This document shows, piece after piece, positions 1-9,590 of a DNA stretch of 9,590 bases. This DNA comes from Escherichia coli (lineage in GTDB: Bacteria > Pseudomonadota > Gammaproteobacteria > Enterobacterales > Enterobacteriaceae), in assembly GCF_003334255.1 (NCBI RefSeq), contig NZ_QOWU01000087.1, one strand, 5' to 3'. How positions within the stretch are numbered: position 1 is the first letter of the stretch; the number at the start of each line of letters is the position of its first letter. The notes below the pieces were generated by a model that searched no databases, was not told the DNA's origin, and was given only the letters and a program-made list of their open reading frames with translations. The translations under genes and the position numbers were made by a program.

Positions 1-79
1 AGTTATCGTGAGAGTAATTCATCGGCACGTTAAATCATATCAGGCGTAATACCACAACCCTTAAGTTAGCGCTTATGGG
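1..79. repeat. Left terminal inverted repeat, 79 bp, exact reverse complement of 9512-9590
   Basis: Reverse-complementing 9512-9590 by hand reproduces bases 1-79 with no mismatch. The match breaks at position 80 (g on the left, t at 9511 on the right). Beyond that there is a weaker imperfect match (left gtaaaacccc versus the reverse complement of right gggggttttt). Confidence 0.93.
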
Positions 80-109
80 GTAAAACCCCGCGTACTGAAT
101 TGTGATGGT

Positions 110-260
110 TTGGTCTCCTGCACCCTTTTTTAATTTATATTGTTTATGTGAATATTATGCCTATGTTTATTATTCATATATATTACGGATGAAAATTATT
201 TGATTATTCATAATGTAAATATTTTATTGAATGATATATATCACAGATAATTTTTAATAT
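110..260 (+). promoter_or_regulatory. AT-rich region upstream of cas3, putative promoter and possible nucleoid-protein binding region
   Basis: A long, very AT-rich run (ttttttaatttatattgtttatgtgaatattatgcc...cacagataatttttaatat) lies directly 5' of the cas3 ATG and contains several TATAAT-like hexamers. No specific -35/-10 pair can be assigned with confidence. A regulatory role is inferred by analogy to H-NS-silenced cas promoters in Enterobacteriaceae. Confidence 0.4.
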
Positions 261-2960
261 ATGCGTAAATATCCTTTAAGTTTACTGAAGGATAAAAATA
301 TTGTGACTTTTTTTGATTTCTGGGGAAAAACCCGACGCGGCGAGAAAGACGGGGGCGACGACTATCACCTTCTTTGCTGGCATTCGCTGGATGTAGCCGC
401 GATGGGCTATTTAATGGTTAAAAGAAATTGCTTCGGGCTGGCTGATTATTTTCGTCAATTAGGGATTTCTGACAAGGAACAGGCGGCTCAATTTTTCGCC
501 TGGTTGCTGTGCTGGCACGATATTGGAAAATTTGCCCGCTCTTTTCAACAACTTTACCTGCCCCCTGAACTCAAGATTCAGGAAGGTGCCAGAAAAAATT
601 ACGAAAAAATCTCTCATTCAACGCTGGGCTACTGGTTGTGGAATCATTATTTAAGTGAATGTCAGGAGTTACTTCCTTCATCTTCGCTCTCTCCGCGCAA
701 ACTTAGGCGAGTGATAGAAATGTGGATGCCCGTGACGACAGGGCATCATGGTCGGCCCCCTGATCGTATGGATGAATTGGATAATTTTCTGCCTGAAGAC
801 AAAGCTGCAGCACGAGATTTTCTCCTTGAAATCAAACCACTGTTTCCGCTCATAGAGATCCCCGCATTCTGGGATGATGATGAGGGCATTGAACTTATAA
901 AACACCTTTCCTGGTATATCTCTGCAACCGTCGTGCTCGCAGACTGGACGGGTTCGTCAACGCGATTTTTTCCACGCGTCGCACACCCAATGGATATTAA
1001 AGGTTACTGGCAGAAAACTTTAATTCAGGCTCAAAACGCCTTAACCGTCTTTCCTCTAAAAGCAAAAGTCGCGCCTTTCAACGGAATTAATACGCTGTTT
1101 CCTTTTATTGAGAATCCGACACCGTTACAGCAAAAGGTGCTGGATCTGGATATCAGCCAGCAAGGACCGCAGTTATTTATTCTGGAAGATGTGACTGGCG
1201 CAGGTAAAACAGAAGCGGCGCTTATCCTGGCGCACAGGTTGATAGCTGCGGGGAAAGCTCAGGGGCTGTTTTTTGGTCTGCCAACAATGGCAACGGCCAA
1301 TGCCATGTACGATCGGCTGGTCAAAACCTGGCTTGCTTTCTATTCGCCAGAATCCCGCCCCAGCCTGGTGCTGGCACATAGTGCCCGCACATTAATGGAC
1401 CGCTTTAATGAATCACTCTGGTCTGGTGATTTAGTCGGGTCAGAAGAACCGGATGAACAAACGTTCAGTCAGGGATGTGCGGCCTGGTTTGCCGACAGTA
1501 ACAAGAAGGCGTTGCTGGCTGAAATTGGCGTCGGCACGCTGGATCAGGCGATGATGGCGGTGATGCCGTTCAAACATAATAATCTGCGGCTTCTGGGGCT
1601 GAGTAACAAAATCCTGCTGGCTGATGAGATCCACGCCTGTGACGCTTACATGTCGTGCATTCTTGAAGGGTTGATCGAGCGGCAGGCGCGTGGCGGAAAC
1701 AGCGTTATTTTGCTTTCTGCCACGTTATCTCAACAGCAGCGCGACAAACTCGTCGCTGCCTTTGCGCGGGGTACAGAGGGCCAGCAAGAAGCTCCGTTCC
1801 TGGAAAAGGATGATTACCCCTGGCTGACGCATGTCACGAAATCCGATGTGAACTCACACCGGGTAGCGACGCGCAAAGACGTTGAGCGTAGCGTCAGCGT
1901 GGGTTGGCTTCATAGTGAACAAGAGTGTATTGCGCGTATCGAATCGGCGGTAAGTCAGGGGAAATGCATCGCCTGGATCCGGAATTCTGTCGATGACGCT
2001 ATTAAGGTTCATCGTCAGCTGCTTGCCCGCGGCGTCATTCCTGCTTCCAGCCTTTCACTTTTTCATAGCCGCTTTGCTTTTAGCGATCGCCAGCGAATTG
2101 AAACGGAAACGCTGGCACGCTTTGGTAAATATTGTAGTTTACAGAGAGCGTCGCAAGTCATTGTTTGTACACAAGTAATTGAGCAAAGCGTGGATATTGA
2201 CCTGGACGAAATGATCTCCGACCTGGCCCCTGTTGATTTGCTGATTCAGCGAGCAGGACGATTACAGCGGCATATCCGCGATATTAATGGTCAGTTAAAG
2301 CGTGACGGAAAGGACGAGCGTTCCCCCCCTGAATTGCTGATTCTGGCTCCCGTCTGGGACGACTCTCCTGGCGACGAATGGTTTGGCAGTGCCATGCGTA
2401 ACAGTGCATTTGTCTATCCCGATCATGGGCGAATCTGGCTGACGCAGCGTGTGCTGCGTGAGCAAGGTGCTATTCAGATGCCACACGCAGCCCGGCTTCT
2501 TATTGAATCCGTCTACGGTGAGGACGTGGTAATGCCGGAAGGATTTGCCCGCAGCGAGCAGGAGCAAGTGGGCAAATATTACTGTGATCGCGCAATGGCT
2601 AAAAAGTTTGTGCTGAACTTCAGGCCCGGCTATGCCGCCAATATCAACGATTACCTCCCGGAAAAACTGTCGACACGTCTGGCTGAGGAGTCTGTTTCCC
2701 TGTGGCTGGCTACCTGTATTGACGGTGTGGTGAAGCCTTATGCCACCGGTGCTCACGCATGGGAAATGAGCGTTGTCAGAGTGCGCCGGAGCTGGTGGAA
2801 AAAACATCGGGATGAGTTTTCTTTACTGGAGGGAGAGGCGTTCAGGCTGTGGTGCATTGAACAGCGACAAGATCCGGAGATGGCAAACGTGATTTTAGTC
2901 AACGATGACGAAAGTTGCGGGTATTCGGCTACGGAAGGATTGATTGGCAAGGTTGGTTGA
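261..2960 (+). CDS. cas3: Cas3, type I HD-nuclease / SF2 helicase
   Basis: 899-aa ORF. The N-terminal HD domain shows HLLCWHSLDVA and CWHDIGK (HD motif). Helicase motifs follow: Walker A TGAGKTEAA, motif II LLADEIHACD, SAT, and motif VI QRAGRLQRH. It sits at the head of a cas operon. The start at 261 has no obvious Shine-Dalgarno, so the start codon is less certain than the stop. Confidence 0.93.
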   Translation: MRKYPLSLLKDKNIVTFFDFWGKTRRGEKDGGDDYHLLCWHSLDVAAMGYLMVKRNCFGLADYFRQLGISDKEQAAQFFAWLLCWHDIGKFARSFQQLYLPPELKIQEGARKNYEKISHSTLGYWLWNHYLSECQELLPSSSLSPRKLRRVIEMWMPVTTGHHGRPPDRMDELDNFLPEDKAAARDFLLEIKPLFPLIEIPAFWDDDEGIELIKHLSWYISATVVLADWTGSSTRFFPRVAHPMDIKGYWQKTLIQAQNALTVFPLKAKVAPFNGINTLFPFIENPTPLQQKVLDLDISQQGPQLFILEDVTGAGKTEAALILAHRLIAAGKAQGLFFGLPTMATANAMYDRLVKTWLAFYSPESRPSLVLAHSARTLMDRFNESLWSGDLVGSEEPDEQTFSQGCAAWFADSNKKALLAEIGVGTLDQAMMAVMPFKHNNLRLLGLSNKILLADEIHACDAYMSCILEGLIERQARGGNSVILLSATLSQQQRDKLVAAFARGTEGQQEAPFLEKDDYPWLTHVTKSDVNSHRVATRKDVERSVSVGWLHSEQECIARIESAVSQGKCIAWIRNSVDDAIKVHRQLLARGVIPASSLSLFHSRFAFSDRQRIETETLARFGKYCSLQRASQVIVCTQVIEQSVDIDLDEMISDLAPVDLLIQRAGRLQRHIRDINGQLKRDGKDERSPPELLILAPVWDDSPGDEWFGSAMRNSAFVYPDHGRIWLTQRVLREQGAIQMPHAARLLIESVYGEDVVMPEGFARSEQEQVGKYYCDRAMAKKFVLNFRPGYAANINDYLPEKLSTRLAEESVSLWLATCIDGVVKPYATGAHAWEMSVVRVRRSWWKKHRDEFSLLEGEAFRLWCIEQRQDPEMANVILVNDDESCGYSATEGLIGKVG

Positions 2961-3057
2961 GATGTCTGCGACAGGACTCTCTGAATAGTTGATACACCGA
3001 AAAGGATGGAAAGATGGACAACCGACCTGGGATGGTCTTTTTTACGAGAGGATGCGT

Positions 3058-4620
3058 ATGAACTCGTTTTCACTTCTGACAACCCCGTGGTTGCCCGTTC
3101 GTTTTAAAGACGGAACGACAGGCAAACTGGCGCCAGTCGATCTGGCGGATGAAAATGTTGTCGATATTTCTGCGCCGCGGGCAGATCTCCAGGGTGCGGT
3201 ATGGCAGTTTTTGCTGGGGCTACTACAAACCAGCTTCGCGCCAAAAGATCATCGTCGTTGGGATGATATCTGGGAAGACGGACTGGAAGCTGAAAAGCTA
3301 CGGGAAGCATTGCAGTCATTAGAACATGCTTTCCAGTTTGGGCCAGATTCCCCTTCATTTATGCAGGATTTCGAGGCGCTCACCGGAGATAAAGTTCCGG
3401 TCGCTTCGCTACTGCCTGAGATTCCCGGCGCTCAAACAACGAAGTTTAATAAAGACCACTTTATCAAGCGTGGTGTAACGGAATACCTGTGCCCACATTG
3501 TTCTGCGTTAGCTCTGTTCTCCCTACAGTTGAATGCGCCGTCAGGTGGCAAAGGCTACCGCACCGGTTTACGCGGCGGTGGGCCGATGACCACTCTGATT
3601 GAATTACAGGAATATCAGGGTAATCAACAAACTCCCTTGTGGCGCAAACTGTGGATCAATGTCATGCCGCAGGATGAAGCCGATTTACCGCTACCCAAAA
3701 AATTTGACGATCTGGTTTTCCCCTGGCTTGGCCCGACGCGCACCAGCGAACTGGCCGGTGCGGTGGTAACCGATGAGCAGGTCAATAAACTCCAGGCGTA
3801 CTGGGGAATGCCTCGCCGTATTCGTATTGATTTTAATACCACGACAGTCGGCAACTGCGATATTTGCGGTGAGCAGAGCGACGCGCTCCTGAGCCTGATG
3901 ACGACCAAAAATTACGGTGCGAATTATGCCATGTGGCAGCATCCCTTAACGCCTTACCGTGTACCACTTAAAGAGGGTGGCGAGTTTTACTCCGTTAAAC
4001 CACAACCGGGCGGTTTAATCTGGCGTGACTGGTTAGGCCTTATCGAAACGGGTAAATCAGAAAACAATACGGAACTTCCCGCGCTGGTGGTGAAACTCTT
4101 CAATGCCAGCAGTCTCAAGCAGGCAAAAGTGGGCCTGTGGGGATTTGGCTATGATTTCGACAACATGAAAGCGCGCTGTTGGTACGAACACCATTTCCCG
4201 CTGCTGCTCGATAAAAAAGAAGGTCAGATACCGAAGCTGCGGCTGGCTGCGCAAACAGCTTCACGGATTCTAAGTCTGTTACGGAGTGCATTGAAAGAAG
4301 CATGGTTCTCCGATCCAAAAGGTGCAAGGGGTGATTTTAGTTTTGTGGATATCGACTTCTGGAACAAAACTCAGCATCGCTTTCTGAGGTTAGTGCGCCA
4401 AATTGAAGAAGGTCAGGATGCGGATGAATTACTCAGCAAATGGAATAAGGAAATTTGGTTATTCGCACGTCAGGATTTTGACGAGCGTGTATTCACCAAT
4501 CCTTATGAGCCCGTTGATCTGGAACGCGTCATGACCGCGCGCAAGAAATATTTTACAACATCGGCGGAGAAGCAAAGTGCTAAAGCCGCCAGGGAGAAAA
4601 AGCAGGAGGCTGCTGAATGA
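3058..4620 (+). CDS. casA: Cse1/CasA, large subunit of the type I-E Cascade complex
   Basis: A large ORF immediately after cas3 and before cse2, in the conserved I-E order. I chose the ATG at 3058 (MNSFSLLTTPWLPVRF...) because GAGAGG lies 7 nt upstream as a Shine-Dalgarno. The ORF-track start at 2989 lacks one. The stop TGA at 4618-4620 overlaps the casB ATG. Confidence 0.88.
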   Translation: MNSFSLLTTPWLPVRFKDGTTGKLAPVDLADENVVDISAPRADLQGAVWQFLLGLLQTSFAPKDHRRWDDIWEDGLEAEKLREALQSLEHAFQFGPDSPSFMQDFEALTGDKVPVASLLPEIPGAQTTKFNKDHFIKRGVTEYLCPHCSALALFSLQLNAPSGGKGYRTGLRGGGPMTTLIELQEYQGNQQTPLWRKLWINVMPQDEADLPLPKKFDDLVFPWLGPTRTSELAGAVVTDEQVNKLQAYWGMPRRIRIDFNTTTVGNCDICGEQSDALLSLMTTKNYGANYAMWQHPLTPYRVPLKEGGEFYSVKPQPGGLIWRDWLGLIETGKSENNTELPALVVKLFNASSLKQAKVGLWGFGYDFDNMKARCWYEHHFPLLLDKKEGQIPKLRLAAQTASRILSLLRSALKEAWFSDPKGARGDFSFVDIDFWNKTQHRFLRLVRQIEEGQDADELLSKWNKEIWLFARQDFDERVFTNPYEPVDLERVMTARKKYFTTSAEKQSAKAAREKKQEAAE

Positions 4621-5153
4621 GTATTGTAAAAGAGGAGCACAAAGCCACGCTGCGCAAATGGCACGAGGAATTGCAGGAGAAACGTGGCGAACGTGCCAGT
4701 CTGCGGCGTAGTACGACGGTTAATGATGTTTGTCTGACGGATGGATTTCGCCTGTTTCTGAAGAACAGACAAATAAAGTGGCAGGATGAACCTGAGTGGC
4801 GTATCACCGCACTGGCGCTGATAGCCGCAGTTAGCGCCAATGTTAAAGCTATTGATGAACGGCAGCCTTTTGCCGCGCAGCTGGCGGCGGTAATGTCAAA
4901 GGGGCGTTTTACTCGTCTGTCGGCAGTAAAAACACCGGATGAATTACTGCGCCAGTTACGCCGCGCAGTCAGATTATTAAACGGTTCCGTCAATCTTGAC
5001 TCTCTGGCAGAGGGGGTCTTCCGTTGGTGCCAGGAGAGCGACGACCTGCTCAATCATCACCGCCGCCAGCAGCGGCCAACCGAATTTATCCGTATCCGCT
5101 GGGCGCTGGAATATTACCAGGCTGGCGACGCCGATAACGAACAAAATCAATAA
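4617..5153 (+). CDS. casB: Cse2/CasB, small subunit of Cascade
   Basis: 178-aa ORF in the expected position between cse1 and cas7. AGGAGG lies at 4604-4609, and the ATGA overlap with the casA stop indicates translational coupling. The assignment rests mainly on size and synteny. The sequence is not close to K-12 CasB as I recall it. Confidence 0.8.
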   Translation: MSIVKEEHKATLRKWHEELQEKRGERASLRRSTTVNDVCLTDGFRLFLKNRQIKWQDEPEWRITALALIAAVSANVKAIDERQPFAAQLAAVMSKGRFTRLSAVKTPDELLRQLRRAVRLLNGSVNLDSLAEGVFRWCQESDDLLNHHRRQQRPTEFIRIRWALEYYQAGDADNEQNQ

Positions 5154-5164
5154 AGGACTATCTC

Positions 5165-6220
5165 ATGACAACATTTATTCAGCTTCATTTGTTAACCGCT
5201 TACCCTGCTGCCAACCTTAACCGTGATGATACCGGTGCGCCAAAAACTGTGGTGCTGGGTGGAGCAACGCGTCTGCGCGTTTCCTCGCAAAGTCTGAAAC
5301 GTGCGTGGCGCACTTCTGCACTTTTTGAACAGGCACTGGCGGGCCATATTGGTATTCGCAGTGGGCGTATTGCGCGTGAGGCGGCAACTATCCTGATTGA
5401 GAAAGGAATCGAAGAGAAAAAAGCCATCGAATGGGCGGCAAAAATTGCAGATTATCTTGGGAAAGCTAAAAACGACAAAAAACCAAAAGATCCGCTCACT
5501 AACGCCGAAACTGAACAGTTAGTCCATATCAGCCCGGCAGAATTTGACGCCGTAAAAGTGCTGGCCCATCAGCTTGCAGAAGAAAAGCGCGCGCCAAAAG
5601 AGGAAGATCTCGCGTTGTTACGCAAAGACCGTATGGCGGTAGATATTGCCATGTTTGGTCGTATGCTGGCGAATAAACCCGAGTTTAATGTTGAAGCCGC
5701 CTGCCAGGTAGCGCACGCATTTGGTGTCAGTGAAACGATTGTCGAAGATGATTTTTTCACCGCCGTTGATGATTTGCGCCAGGCTTCTGAAGATGCCGGT
5801 GCCGGGCATCTTGGTGAAACCGGATTCGGTTCTGCACTGTTCTACACCTATATCTGCATTGATAAAGATCTGCTGGTCGAAAACCTTGGCGGTGACGAAG
5901 CGTTAGCTAATCAGACCATACGTGCCTTTACGGAAGCCGCACTTAAAGTCTCCCCAACCGGCAAACAGAACAGCTTTGCCAGCCGTGCCTACGCCTCCTG
6001 GGCGCTGGCAGAAAAAGGCACCGATCAACCGCGTTCTCTGGCGGCAGCTTTCTATGAACCCATTAATGGCACCCGTCAGTTAGAGGTGGCGGTGCAGCGT
6101 ATTACAACTCTTCGCGAAAATATGAATACGGTCTACGAACAGAAGACCGATTACGCAAGTTTTGACGTGATGAACAAACAGGGAAGCATGAAGGACGTGC
6201 TGGACTTTATCTGCGCGTAA
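5165..6220 (+). CDS. casC: Cas7e/CasC, Cascade backbone subunit
   Basis: 351 aa. The N-terminus (LLTAYPAANLNRDDTGAPKTVVLGGATRLRVSSQSLKRAWR) matches the conserved Cas7e N-terminal motif (..LNRDD...GG.RR.R.SSQSLKRA.R). AAAGGA lies upstream as a Shine-Dalgarno. Confidence 0.92.
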   Translation: MTTFIQLHLLTAYPAANLNRDDTGAPKTVVLGGATRLRVSSQSLKRAWRTSALFEQALAGHIGIRSGRIAREAATILIEKGIEEKKAIEWAAKIADYLGKAKNDKKPKDPLTNAETEQLVHISPAEFDAVKVLAHQLAEEKRAPKEEDLALLRKDRMAVDIAMFGRMLANKPEFNVEAACQVAHAFGVSETIVEDDFFTAVDDLRQASEDAGAGHLGETGFGSALFYTYICIDKDLLVENLGGDEALANQTIRAFTEAALKVSPTGKQNSFASRAYASWALAEKGTDQPRSLAAAFYEPINGTRQLEVAVQRITTLRENMNTVYEQKTDYASFDVMNKQGSMKDVLDFICA

Positions 6221-6230
6221 GGGGCGGCTT

Positions 6231-6977
6231 ATGAGCCAATATCTGATTTTTCAGCTTCATGGGCCGATGGCGTCCTGGGGTGTCGATGCTCCAGGTGAAG
6301 TTCGTCATACCCATGAACTTCCTTCGCGCTCAGCATTGCTGGGGCTACTGGCTGCCGGGGTAGGGATTCGGCGTGATGATACCGAACGCTTAAACGCGTT
6401 TAATCGCCACTATTCACTGGTGGTTTGCGCCAGCCGTAACCCGCGCTGGGCACGGGATTATCACACGGTCCAGATGCCAAAAGAGGTGCGTAAAGCACGT
6501 TATTTCAGCCGTCGCGAAGAGTTGAGCGACCCTGAGCTTTTGAGCGCGATTATCTCCCGGCGCGACTACTACACCGATGCCTGGTGGATGGTGGCGGTGG
6601 CAACAACCCCCGATGCGCCTTACAGCCTCGAACAGTTGCAGGACGGTTTACGCCATCCGGTTTTTCCGCTTTATCTGGGGCGAAAAAGTCATCCGCTGGC
6701 GTTACCACTTGCGCCGTTACTGCTCGAAGGCAACGCGTCTGATGTCTTACGTAACGCATACCAACAGTATCAGGATCGTTTCCGCGAACTGAAAGTCTCA
6801 CTCCCGAAACTTCAGGATGAATGCTGGTGGGAAGGGGAGCACGATGGTTTGGTCGCAAGCAAAATATTACGCCGCCGGGATGTTCCTTTAAATCGTCAGC
6901 AGTGGCTGTTTGGGGAACGCACCATCAATCAGGGGCCGTGGCTCAGCAAGGAGGAACCATGTACCTCTCAAGAATAA
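6231..6977 (+). CDS. casD: Cas5e/CasD, Cascade subunit
   Basis: 248 aa. The N-terminus (YLIFQLHGPMASWG...SALLGLLAAGVGIRRDD) closely parallels the K-12 CasD N-terminus as I recall it (YLILRLAGPMQAWG...SGLLGLLGACLGIQRDD). It sits in the correct operon position. Confidence 0.92.
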   Translation: MSQYLIFQLHGPMASWGVDAPGEVRHTHELPSRSALLGLLAAGVGIRRDDTERLNAFNRHYSLVVCASRNPRWARDYHTVQMPKEVRKARYFSRREELSDPELLSAIISRRDYYTDAWWMVAVATTPDAPYSLEQLQDGLRHPVFPLYLGRKSHPLALPLAPLLLEGNASDVLRNAYQQYQDRFRELKVSLPKLQDECWWEGEHDGLVASKILRRRDVPLNRQQWLFGERTINQGPWLSKEEPCTSQE

Positions 6978-7605
6978 CCTTACATACCGGCCAGCTTTCG
7001 CCTGCGCAGTTGCTGCATCTGGTGGATCGCGGTGAATATGTGATGCATCAGTGGTTGTGGGATCTCTTCCCTGGCGGCAAAGAAAGGCAATTTCTTTATC
7101 GTCGGGAAGAACTCCAGGGCGCGTTTCGCTTTTTTGTCCTCTCGCAGGAACGCCCGGCGGAAAGTGAAACTTTCACCATCGAATGCCGGTCATTTACGCC
7201 CGAGCTGAGTACCGGACAACAACTTTGTTTCAACCTGCGGGCGAATCCAACAATCTGTAAAGCGGGCAAGCGCCACGATCTGCTGATGGAGGCGAAACGG
7301 CAGGTGAGGGGACAGGCGGAAGGAAGTGATGTCTGGTTGCATCAACAACAGGCGGCGCTGGACTGGCTGGCAGCGCAGGGGGAAAGAAGTGGTTTTACAC
7401 TACTGGATACCTCGGTTGATGCCTACCGACAACAACAACTCCGGCGGGAAAACTCCTGGCAACTGATCCAGTTCAGTAGTGTGGATTATACGGGGATGCT
7501 TACGGTCACCGATCCTGGGTTATTTCTGCAACGTCTCAGTCAGGGGTATGGCAAAAGCCGGGCGTTCGGTTGTGGTCTGATGCTGATCAAACCTGGAGCA
7601 GAGGC

Positions 7606-7609
<4 letters not shown>
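6959..7609 (+). CDS. casE: Cas6e/CasE, pre-crRNA endoribonuclease
   Basis: I chose the internal ATG at 6959 (MYLSRITL...), which has AAGGAGG at 6948-6954. Cas6e proteins begin MYLS.., and this gives about 216 aa rather than the 262-aa track ORF. The C-terminal glycine-rich motif GYGKSRAFGCGLM is typical of Cas6e. The gene overlaps the casD 3' end by 19 bp. Confidence 0.88.
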
Positions 7610-8819
<1,210 letters not shown>

Positions 8820-8915
8820 GTTATCCGTTCTTTAAAAATAAGGAAATGTTTTAATTTAGTTGGTAGATTGTTGATGCGGAATAAATTTGTTTAAAAACAG
8901 TTATGTATGCTTAGT
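8820..8915 (+). promoter_or_regulatory. CRISPR leader, AT-rich, expected to hold the pre-crRNA promoter and integration signals
   Basis: A 96-bp AT-rich stretch between the cas2 stop and the first repeat (ttatccgttctttaaaaataaggaaatgttttaatttagttggtagattgttgatgcggaataaatttgtttaaaaacagttatgtatgcttagt). Its position and composition are typical of I-E leaders. No individual promoter or IHF site is assigned. Confidence 0.75.
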
Positions 8916-9493
8916 GTGTTCCCCGCGCCAGCGGGGATAAACCGAACATTAAATTGCCGTGCTGGATGAATCGCGGGTGTTCCCCGCGCCAGCGGGGATA
9001 AACCCTGGATCAGCTGGTTCAATCGTTTACAGCACTGGTGTTCCCCGCGCCAGCGGGGATAAACCGTCGTTCGAGGCGTTTCGCGCCTGGGCGATTATGT
9101 GTTCCCCGCGCCAGCGGGGATAAACCGTCGAAAAACTTCGTCCTGAAAAAATTCATCATGTGTTCCCCGCGCCAGCGGGGATAAACCGGCAGTAAATTAT
9201 TTGACCTCGTTGATAATCCCGTGTTCCCCGCGCCAGCGGGGATAAACCGCCGGTGCAACTGATATTGATAAACGTCGACTCGTGTTCCCCGCGCCAGCGG
9301 GGATAAACCGACACCCGACCGCTAACCGATTTCGTTACAGTAGTGTTCCCCGCGCCAGCGGGGATAAACCGACGTCTATCATTTTCAGTACAAGCTGGGT
9401 TTTGTGTTCCCCGCGCCAGCGGGGATAAACCGCCGGTGTAATCAAAGAGAAAAATCGCCTTTTTGTGTTCCCCGCGCCAGCGGGGATAAACCG
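8916..9493 (+). CRISPR. CRISPR array, 10 direct repeats of 29 bp (GTGTTCCCCGCGCCAGCGGGGATAAACCG) and 9 spacers of 32 bp
   Basis: Repeats start at 8916, 8977, 9038, 9099, 9160, 9221, 9282, 9343, 9404 and 9465, a strict 61-bp period. The repeat carries the palindromic core CCCCGCG..CGCGGGG characteristic of Enterobacteriaceae I-E repeats. Repeat 2 ends in C rather than G. The leader is on the cas2 side, so transcription is on the + strand. Confidence 0.97.
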
Positions 9494-9511
9494 AGTTAAG
9501 AGGGGGTTTTT

Positions 9512-9590
9512 CCCATAAGCGCTAACTTAAGGGTTGTGGTATTACGCCTGATATGATTTAACGTGCCGATGAATTACTCTCACGATAACT
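9512..9590. repeat. Right terminal inverted repeat, 79 bp, exact reverse complement of 1-79
   Basis: See the left copy. It begins 18 nt after the last CRISPR repeat. Confidence 0.93.

Follow-up and report, generated by a model that had tools for sequence, protein, structure and literature searches.

Probable insertion of IS186/IS421 into the tenth spacer of a type I-E CRISPR array of Escherichia coli, with a second copy between hok and cas3

The abrupt end of the CRISPR array at the right edge of the window (i.e., the whole 9,590-nucleotide stretch of DNA analyzed here) is best explained, with a probability that we put at roughly 0.9, by two copies of one insertion sequence (IS): an IS186/IS421 copy that split the array in its tenth spacer and a second copy at the hok-cas3 site. 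By its gene content and surroundings, the window is identified as the chromosomal type I-E (cas-E1) CRISPR-Cas locus of E. coli, located between cysH/hok and iap. Positions 1-9493 share up to 99.6% identity with E. coli chromosomes in a search of complete genomes, and the order annotated in the matching chromosomes is cysH-hok-IS421 transposase (on the minus strand)-cas3...cas2-CRISPR-iap. The annotation of the cas operon was carried over from N18-04097 with a constant offset of 3000, and every cas ORF in the ORF list of the window is full length. The features are as follows.

1-77, minus strand: transposase-proximal end (called IRL) of an IS186/IS421 copy between hok and cas3, running on past the left edge of the window
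78-95, no strand: half of the hok-cas3 IS186 target site, consisting of the 10-bp target duplication GGGTAAAACC and then CCGCG
261-2960, plus strand: cas3, 899 amino acids, ORF intact (ORF call; Cas3 annotation in a 99.6% identical locus)
3058-8819, plus strand: casA(cse1)-casB-cas7e-cas5e-cas6e-cas1e-cas2e, type I-E "E1" operon (ORFs and N18-04097 annotation)
8820-8915, plus strand: CRISPR leader, AT rich, 96 nt, from cas2 to repeat 1 (sequence and related arrays)
8916-9493, plus strand: leader-proximal part of CRISPR2.1 (CRISPR-I), with 10 repeats and 9 spacers of 32 nt
9494-9513, plus strand: IS-interrupted spacer AGTTAAGAGGGGGTTTTTCCCCACCGTTCAGG, 5' part, 20 nt long or, with CC counted toward the IS, 18 nt
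9514-9590, plus strand: second IS186/IS421 copy, again the IRL end, inverted relative to the first (terminal repeat at 9514-9536)

With its 29-nt repeats, 32-nt spacers, a leader beside cas2, and a type I-E cas operon, the array belongs to the CRISPR2.1/CRISPR-I class of type I-E arrays. The ten 29-nt repeats span positions 8916-9493 with a period of 61 nt, and the 34 nt preceding repeat 1 were identical in all related arrays compared. Only repeat 2 deviates from the consensus, GTGTTCCCCGCGCCAGCGGGGATAAACCG, with C rather than G as its last base. This repeat (8977-9005) ends in ...GATAAACCC, and since the variant is found at the equivalent repeat in relatives (N18-04097, LZHX12, 52F4, ECCHD184, and NCTC9041), it was evidently inherited. 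In type I-E arrays, the last base of a repeat is copied from the protospacer side, a base other than G being the trace of a "slipped" acquisition (i.e., one with a non-AAG PAM), and we assume that the terminal C of repeat 2 could be such a trace. All nine spacers of the window, the ninth of which starts with CCGGTGTAATCAAAGAG, were found in related E. coli arrays with their relative order kept. The common series reads 1-7, 10, 8, 11...28, 30, 31, 9, 38, and the series in the window (1-8, 9, stub) is a shortened form of it, consistent with ordinary internal repeat-repeat deletions. The adjacency of spacer 8, a repeat, and spacer 9 was absent from the metagenome contigs scanned and from complete genomes, the best genome match being one of 94% in two pieces.

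Repeat 10 (9465-9493) matches the consensus without a single mismatch and is followed by 18 nt (9494-9511, AGTTAAGAGGGGGTTTTT), after which positions 9512-9590 are the exact reverse complement of positions 1-79. A previous reading of this DNA, made from the sequence only, had reported the perfect repeat, the 18-nt tail, and an inverted repeat starting at 9512, all of which proved accurate when the sequence was reread. In a repeat search, the inverted arms reached 1-94 and 9497-9590 at 95% complementarity; this lengthening to 94 nt arises because both flanks are similar IS186 target sites (78-94 versus 9497-9513), the element itself being no longer. The inverted repeat is identified as the transposase-proximal end of IS186/IS421 (IS4 family), present at both ends of the window. 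The 23-nt terminal repeat CATAAGCGCTAACTTAAGGGTTG occupies 9514-9536 and, reverse complemented, 55-77, and the first 7 codons of the transposase gene (ATGAATTACTCTCACGATAACT), all that the window holds of it, lie at 9569-9590 and 22-1, with the left-copy ATG at 22 reading leftward (MNYSHDN...) and the right-copy ATG at 9569 reading rightward, codirectionally with transcription of the array. In relatives (N18-04097 and ETEC4090 included), this 7-codon start continues into a gene annotated in RefSeq as "IS4-like element IS421 family transposase," and the full element, 1338 bp with CATAAGCGCTAACTTAAGGGTTG at each end, was found in ETEC4090 (12756-14093 of L001) and others. Terminal repeats of 23 bp on an element of ~1.34 kb are what defines IS186/IS421, and the window shows one end of it per copy. 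PGAP labels the element IS421 or IS186B; IS186 and IS421 designate one and the same element (PMC12844343). The IS boundary is ambiguous by 2 nt: when the IS end is set at the terminal repeat, the spacer remnant is 20 nt long and the target duplication 10 bp, whereas assigning the flanking CC to the IS (start at 9512) leaves a remnant of 18 nt and a duplicated core, GTTTTT, of 6 bp, in line with the definition used in PMC5009759. A separate similarity, between a 16-nt stretch of casA (4419-4434, TGCGGATGAATTACTC) and the IS186 transposase start region (12-27 and 9564-9579), which agree at 15 of 16 positions, is most likely due to chance.

The window stops 77 to 79 nt inside each IS copy, and three metagenome contigs of the same locus start and end 51 to 53 nt inside IS186. 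De Bruijn assemblers break contigs at multicopy repeats, and, judging from this break signature, the window is probably a whole short-read contig broken at a multicopy IS. Since its edges look like contig breaks at a repeat, one might suppose that the tail and the inverted repeat are either the unrelated flank of a natural array end or the product of an assembly mis-join. The tail itself argues otherwise. In ETEC4090, the junction is identical (repeat-AGTTAAGAGGGGGTTTTTCC, followed directly by the IS), and GGGTTTTTCCCCACCGTTCAGG and a normal repeat come, in this order, after the other IS end; in silico removal of the IS together with one copy of the 10-bp duplication GGGTTTTTCC yielded the 32-nt spacer AGTTAAGAGGGGGTTTTTCCCCACCGTTCAGG. 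This spacer lies uninterrupted between two repeats, at 100% identity, in 9 complete genomes (among 5426 from E. coli), directly after spacer 9 of the window in OSUCMP42NDM and followed in NCTC9041 by the older spacers that are found past the IS in ETEC4090. Comparison of the tail with known spacers, a check proposed in the sequence-only reading, therefore shows the 18 nt to be the 5' portion of a genuine spacer, 32 nt long, that is intact elsewhere. Moreover, the window junction recurs, base for base, in 23 of the 5426 complete E. coli genomes, many of these closed genomes being long-read assemblies that span the IS, as well as in 3 metagenome contigs, and a junction so widely repeated is not a chance feature. 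Of the marks of a natural leader-distal terminus, neither a degenerate last repeat nor non-CRISPR DNA of the iap side is present at the array end in the window; the genuine terminus in relatives, GAGTTCCCCCGCCCCTGCGGTAGAACTCC, shares 16 of 29 positions with the consensus and adjoins iap. Insofar as relatives can show, a natural end or a chimera is thus refuted, and we attach virtually no probability to it. By comparison with these arrays, repeat 10 is undegenerate simply as an internal repeat.

What lies beyond the IS could be followed in the relatives. According to BLAST coverage tables (sequence checks covered 10 of the 26 genomes in which AGTTAAGAGGGGGTTTTTCCCCACCGTTCAGG carries an IS, i.e., these 23 and the 3 with an opposite insertion described below), the order array-IS-rest of the spacer-distal array-iap is found in 17 of the 23 genomes, and an inverted state is found in 6. 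The outer IS end was read in 7 of the 23 (among them ETEC4090, LZHX12, X14-3, G1/2, 64EVA, and 52F4), each time with a distal array behind it. There, the IS is followed by the 10-bp target duplication, the spacer remainder, and 3 to 6 repeats, with one C-to-T change in the penultimate distal repeat and, where read, the older spacers in conserved order; the degenerate terminal repeat beside iap was read explicitly in ETEC4090. Another 15 of the 23 have, according to the search table, either annotated CRISPR sequence or complete query coverage flanking the IS on both sides; the normal-order genomes known from the table alone number 14, with CRISPR on both sides in 13 and near-full coverage in MLI104K2. 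The distal part was not seen in ECCHD184, for which the fetched stretch ended short of it. In HSP425 and ES4, which carry the IS in the opposite orientation, the distal array likewise lies past the outer IS end. Among the relatives searched, none had the tail followed by unrelated, non-IS sequence.

As judged from these comparisons, then, the array in junction-bearing relatives is split by the IS insertion rather than truncated. The sequence-only reading had proposed a truncation at the junction, and part of this stands: the window does not show a natural array end, related arrays do continue past this point, and the boundary of the inverted repeat does mark a rearrangement that cut the array, namely, the insertion of IS186 into a spacer. 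The degenerate leader-distal repeat that it expected exists as well, at least 1.3 kb further on in relatives. The supposed loss of distal spacers and terminal repeat, on the other hand, is contradicted by relatives with the same junction that keep both past the IS (7 read, 15 by table). A true truncation, in which the event that brought the inverted-repeat sequence also deleted the distal spacers and terminal repeat so that the array ends at repeat 10, can still draw on the window showing nothing past the IS end and on IS186-associated array deletions that do exist at this locus (AR_0019 and the ~270 genomes with a cas-less junction, two of which were checked and lack cas). Nevertheless, the spacer remainder, the matching duplication, and the distal array are retained behind every outer IS end that was read (in 7 of 23 genomes and in 2 of the 3 that have the IS the other way round), with table evidence of a distal array in 15 more, and the deletions observed take the leader-proximal side and cas, exactly the side that the window still has. 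We therefore regard a true truncation as improbable. From 22 of the 23 junction relatives and 2 of the 3 opposite-orientation genomes, we infer that the source genome also keeps its distal array; IS-adjacent deletions occur at the locus, and the source strain may have lost the distal part secondarily.

Both insertion sites have the sequence of an IS186 target. The spacer contains GGGG(GTTTTT)CCCC, a perfect match, and the hok-cas3 site could be reconstructed as GGGG(GTAAAA)CCCC, the 10 bp of GGGTAAAACC also being present on the hok side of the IS in ETEC4090, N18-04097, LZHX12, and X14-3. The target motif is thus accompanied by duplication of its core, which in relatives is seen at both IS ends, the duplication of the right-hand copy lying outside the window. 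Among 69 distinct spacers in the loci examined, AGTTAAGAGGGGGTTTTTCCCCACCGTTCAGG was the only one to contain GGGG(N6/N7)CCCC, and no other intact GGGG(N6/7)CCCC site was found within the window. In the 5426 genomes, AGTTAAGAGGGGGTTTTTCCCCACCGTTCAGG is far more commonly interrupted (23 + 3 genomes with cas and ~267 in which the remnant GGGTTTTTCCCCACCGTTCAGG lies beside a single IS) than intact (9 genomes). A search for the protospacer of AGTTAAGAGGGGGTTTTTCCCCACCGTTCAGG in a phage collection gave one weak partial match only (20 nt, E=3), and a scan of viral contigs with the spacer stub gave no match.

Two inverted copies of an IS4-family element flanking a 9.4-kb cas-plus-array cargo also bring to mind a composite transposon, a Tn10/Tn5-like unit that would have imported the CRISPR-Cas system. 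The duplications speak against such a unit: that of the hok copy is GGGTAAAACC, that of the spacer copy is GGGTTTTTCC, and none is shared around the pair. Furthermore, IS186 is found beside hok in 842 genomes and in this spacer in only 26; N18-04097, which was read, combines the hok-side copy with an uninterrupted array; array sequence lies on both sides of the right-hand copy; and the locus is always situated between cysH and iap. A plasmid search for the cas-plus-array segment returned Mb-sized records (presumably chromosomes) and partial matches of lower identity, with no IS-flanked module apparent in the matched stretches themselves. With a separate duplication for each copy, a fixed cysH-iap site, and no IS-flanked copy found on plasmids, the pair does not qualify as a composite transposon, an origin that we consider barely conceivable.

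Two separate insertions of IS186, as in the preferred reading, leave a pair of inverted copies around the cas-plus-array segment, and in 6 of the 23 genomes (G1/2, G6/7, G8, 52F4, ECCHD184, and 64EVA) this segment is inverted, the array-side IS being followed by hok and cysH. In the 5 of these in which the far side was covered, the full order is iap-distal array-IS-cas3...cas2-proximal array-IS-hok-cysH, and in the six inverted genomes the distal array is ~10 kb away. The flanks have been swapped accordingly: next to the array, the IS now leads into the hok flank in reverse complement, and the cas3-side IS is preceded by the reverse-complemented spacer remainder, a pattern that we read as the mark left when two inverted IS copies recombine reciprocally. 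Proximal spacer sets differ among the four inverted strains that were read in sequence, so the flip may have occurred more than once. The inner junctions, which are all that the window holds, are identical in both states, and the window alone therefore fits the normal and the inverted orientation equally.

A second outcome is tied to the orientation of the IS. In 3 complete genomes, the match stops precisely where the 23-nt terminal repeat ends, as expected for an insertion in the opposite orientation. The junctions were read in two of them, ES4 and HSP425, and show the IS at the same spacer position, in the opposite orientation and with the same duplication; the end point of the match suggests that the third, NZ_OZ547038.1, likewise carries an opposite-orientation insertion. 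Such an insertion at the same spacer site was also read in metagenome contig L014. For both orientations to occur at one site, the IS must have transposed independently at least once. HSP425 carries its two IS copies as direct repeats; ES4 has a rearranged hok side, on which no IS copy was seen.

On the basis of HSP425, we constructed the predicted product of recombination between direct copies, i.e., hok flank, IS, and GGGTTTTTCCCCACCGTTCAGG-distal array, in this order, and this product was matched with 100% coverage and 99.9 to 100% identity in many genomes. By BLAST coverage tables, a deletion-type junction is present in 270 of the 5426 genomes (~5%), a count obtained with a query dominated by array sequence, as a 180-nt query was unspecific, with any GGGG-flanked IS186 reaching 80% coverage; 3 of the 270 should be of the cas-containing, direct-repeat type. 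B-1109 and 300709, the 2 of these ~270 genomes that were checked in sequence, lack the cas genes, the leader, and the proximal array. Hence, as far as these junctions show, the rearrangement that truly truncates this array removes its leader-proximal rather than its distal side. AR_0019 (L012, 6003-7341) has a second kind of cas-less hok-IS-array junction, at another array site, GGGGATAAACCCCC, where the target consists of a repeat end and a spacer starting with CCC, from which it follows that repeat-spacer junctions can create IS186 targets.

Further IS copies and deletions were encountered in this part of the chromosome. NCTC9041 (L007, 5285-25239) has a different IS186 copy in a repeat of CRISPR-II (queE/ygcF-ygcE), at the junction GGGGATAAACCG-IS, and this copy has recombined with the hok-cas3 copy, such that ~18 kb (cysH...ygcE) is inverted and the IS flanks are swapped. 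Independent IS186 insertions were found in a CRISPR-II repeat end in 2018-11-3CC (L010, 12775-14113; duplication GGATAAACCA) and at the leader/first-repeat junction (GGGGGAGTTCCCC) of the cas-E2 strain MS15047 (L011, 12505-13843). Other elements are present in ECCHD184 (L003, 8853-11331), whose array contains an IS66-family element between spacers 5 and 7, and in ES4 (L017, 1949-2654 and 10630-11838), with ISVsa5 between cas2 and the array and an IS1 truncating cas3. Several strains with an IS in the array have internal cas deletions, in contrast to the operon of the window with its full-length ORFs: LZHX12 (L005, 7899-8953) is without casB and cas7, 52F4 (L009, 9134-9187) is without cas7, and HSP425 (L018, 11153-11797) and metagenome contig L014 have a casA-to-cas2 deletion in common. 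NCTC9041 (L007, 25423-28705) carries a cas3/casA deletion.

In the mechanism that we propose, one IS186 copy would have come to lie in GGGG(GTAAAA)CCCC between hok and cas3, and another would have transposed into the tenth spacer, AGTTAAGAGGGGGTTTTTCCCCACCGTTCAGG, at GGGG(GTTTTT)CCCC. This insertion would have cut the spacer and duplicated the target, leaving a proximal array that ends in an internal repeat and a stub of 18 to 20 nt, with the spacer remainder, the older spacers, and the degenerate terminal repeat beyond the 1.3-kb element. Homologous recombination between the inverted IS copies would then be able to flip the whole cas3-to-array segment; with the IS in the other orientation in the same spacer, the copies would be direct and recombination would delete cas, leader, and proximal array. 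As is established for type I-E systems, processing by Cas6e needs a downstream repeat to yield a mature crRNA, and spacer 10, which has none, is presumably functionally dead. The distal spacers, for their part, appear to be uncoupled from the leader promoter by the IS or, in inverted strains, by the whole locus. Since the transposase gene starts 55 nt into the IS and is codirectional, pre-crRNA transcription may read through into it.

We lean slightly toward a wider reading of these observations, in which the spacer-borne target and the resident hok IS186 would together decide the fate of the whole system. A single acquired spacer with GGGG(N6)CCCC would have made the array a recurrent landing site for IS186; in the orientation seen in the window, the cas-plus-array module would become an invertible cassette (flipped in 6 of 23), and in the other orientation it would be primed for loss of cas-E1, leader, and proximal array (~5% of genomes carry the junction). 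If so, the extant genomes with two IS copies would represent intermediates that Almendros et al. (mBio 2014, PMC3903273) only hypothesized, and the cas-less arrangement G of that article would trace back to a spacer rather than a repeat. For annotation, an array that breaks off at a contig edge after a perfect last repeat would point to an IS break rather than a truncation, and short-read spacer counts in such strains would miss the distal part.

The presence of IS186 at this locus has been described before (PMC3903273), and the present case is a refinement of a known phenomenon. That article reports IS186 both in the CRISPR cassette and beside hok/sok, at the boundary of IG2 and IG3, an affinity of the element for GC-rich sequence with targets mostly in repeats, and a loss of cas-E1 that goes through the hypothetical intermediates AH1 and AH2 when equivalent IS copies recombine. 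Arrangements D to I, as given there, share with our case the element, the iap-cysH locus, the upstream site, and an IS186 in the cassette. Case G, in which the leader, cas-E1, and part of the array are lost, matches the hok-IS-distal array genomes found here, the letter being mapped by inference. There are also differences from what that article describes: its two-IS intermediates are hypothetical, whereas ours are extant genomes with both orientations, and the array target here lies inside a spacer with the consensus motif, in contrast to targets mostly in repeats. In addition, inverted copies of the window type give inversion, not deletion; the words "inversion" and "inverted" are absent from the text of PMC3903273.

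The sites themselves agree with those of Lee et al. (NAR 2016, PMC5009759), who cite SaiSree et al. 2001 for the target specificity of IS186 and describe a target 5'-GGGG(N6/N7)CCCC-3' whose core is duplicated, with insertion in either orientation and recurrent hot spots. Both sites of the window fit GGGG(N6)CCCC with a duplicated N6 core, and insertion in both orientations at one site parallels the hot spots fimA and menC; unlike the fixed genomic sites of that study, the array target here was imported as a spacer by CRISPR adaptation. The general mechanism of IS-mediated inversion (PMC5009759) is the same as well, with 1.3-kb inverted copies flipping 9.4 kb here, and, as in IS inversion generally, local IS-flank junctions are unchanged while pairs become unmatched; the only particular is that a complete CRISPR-Cas operon is flipped together with its leader and the proximal part of its array. 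In summary, the findings belong to the known theme of IS186 shaping, inverting, and deleting the dispensable type I-E system of E. coli and point to no new kind of system. Their modest addition would be that the IS186 target was supplied by a spacer and that a common cas-less arrangement goes back to the same site.
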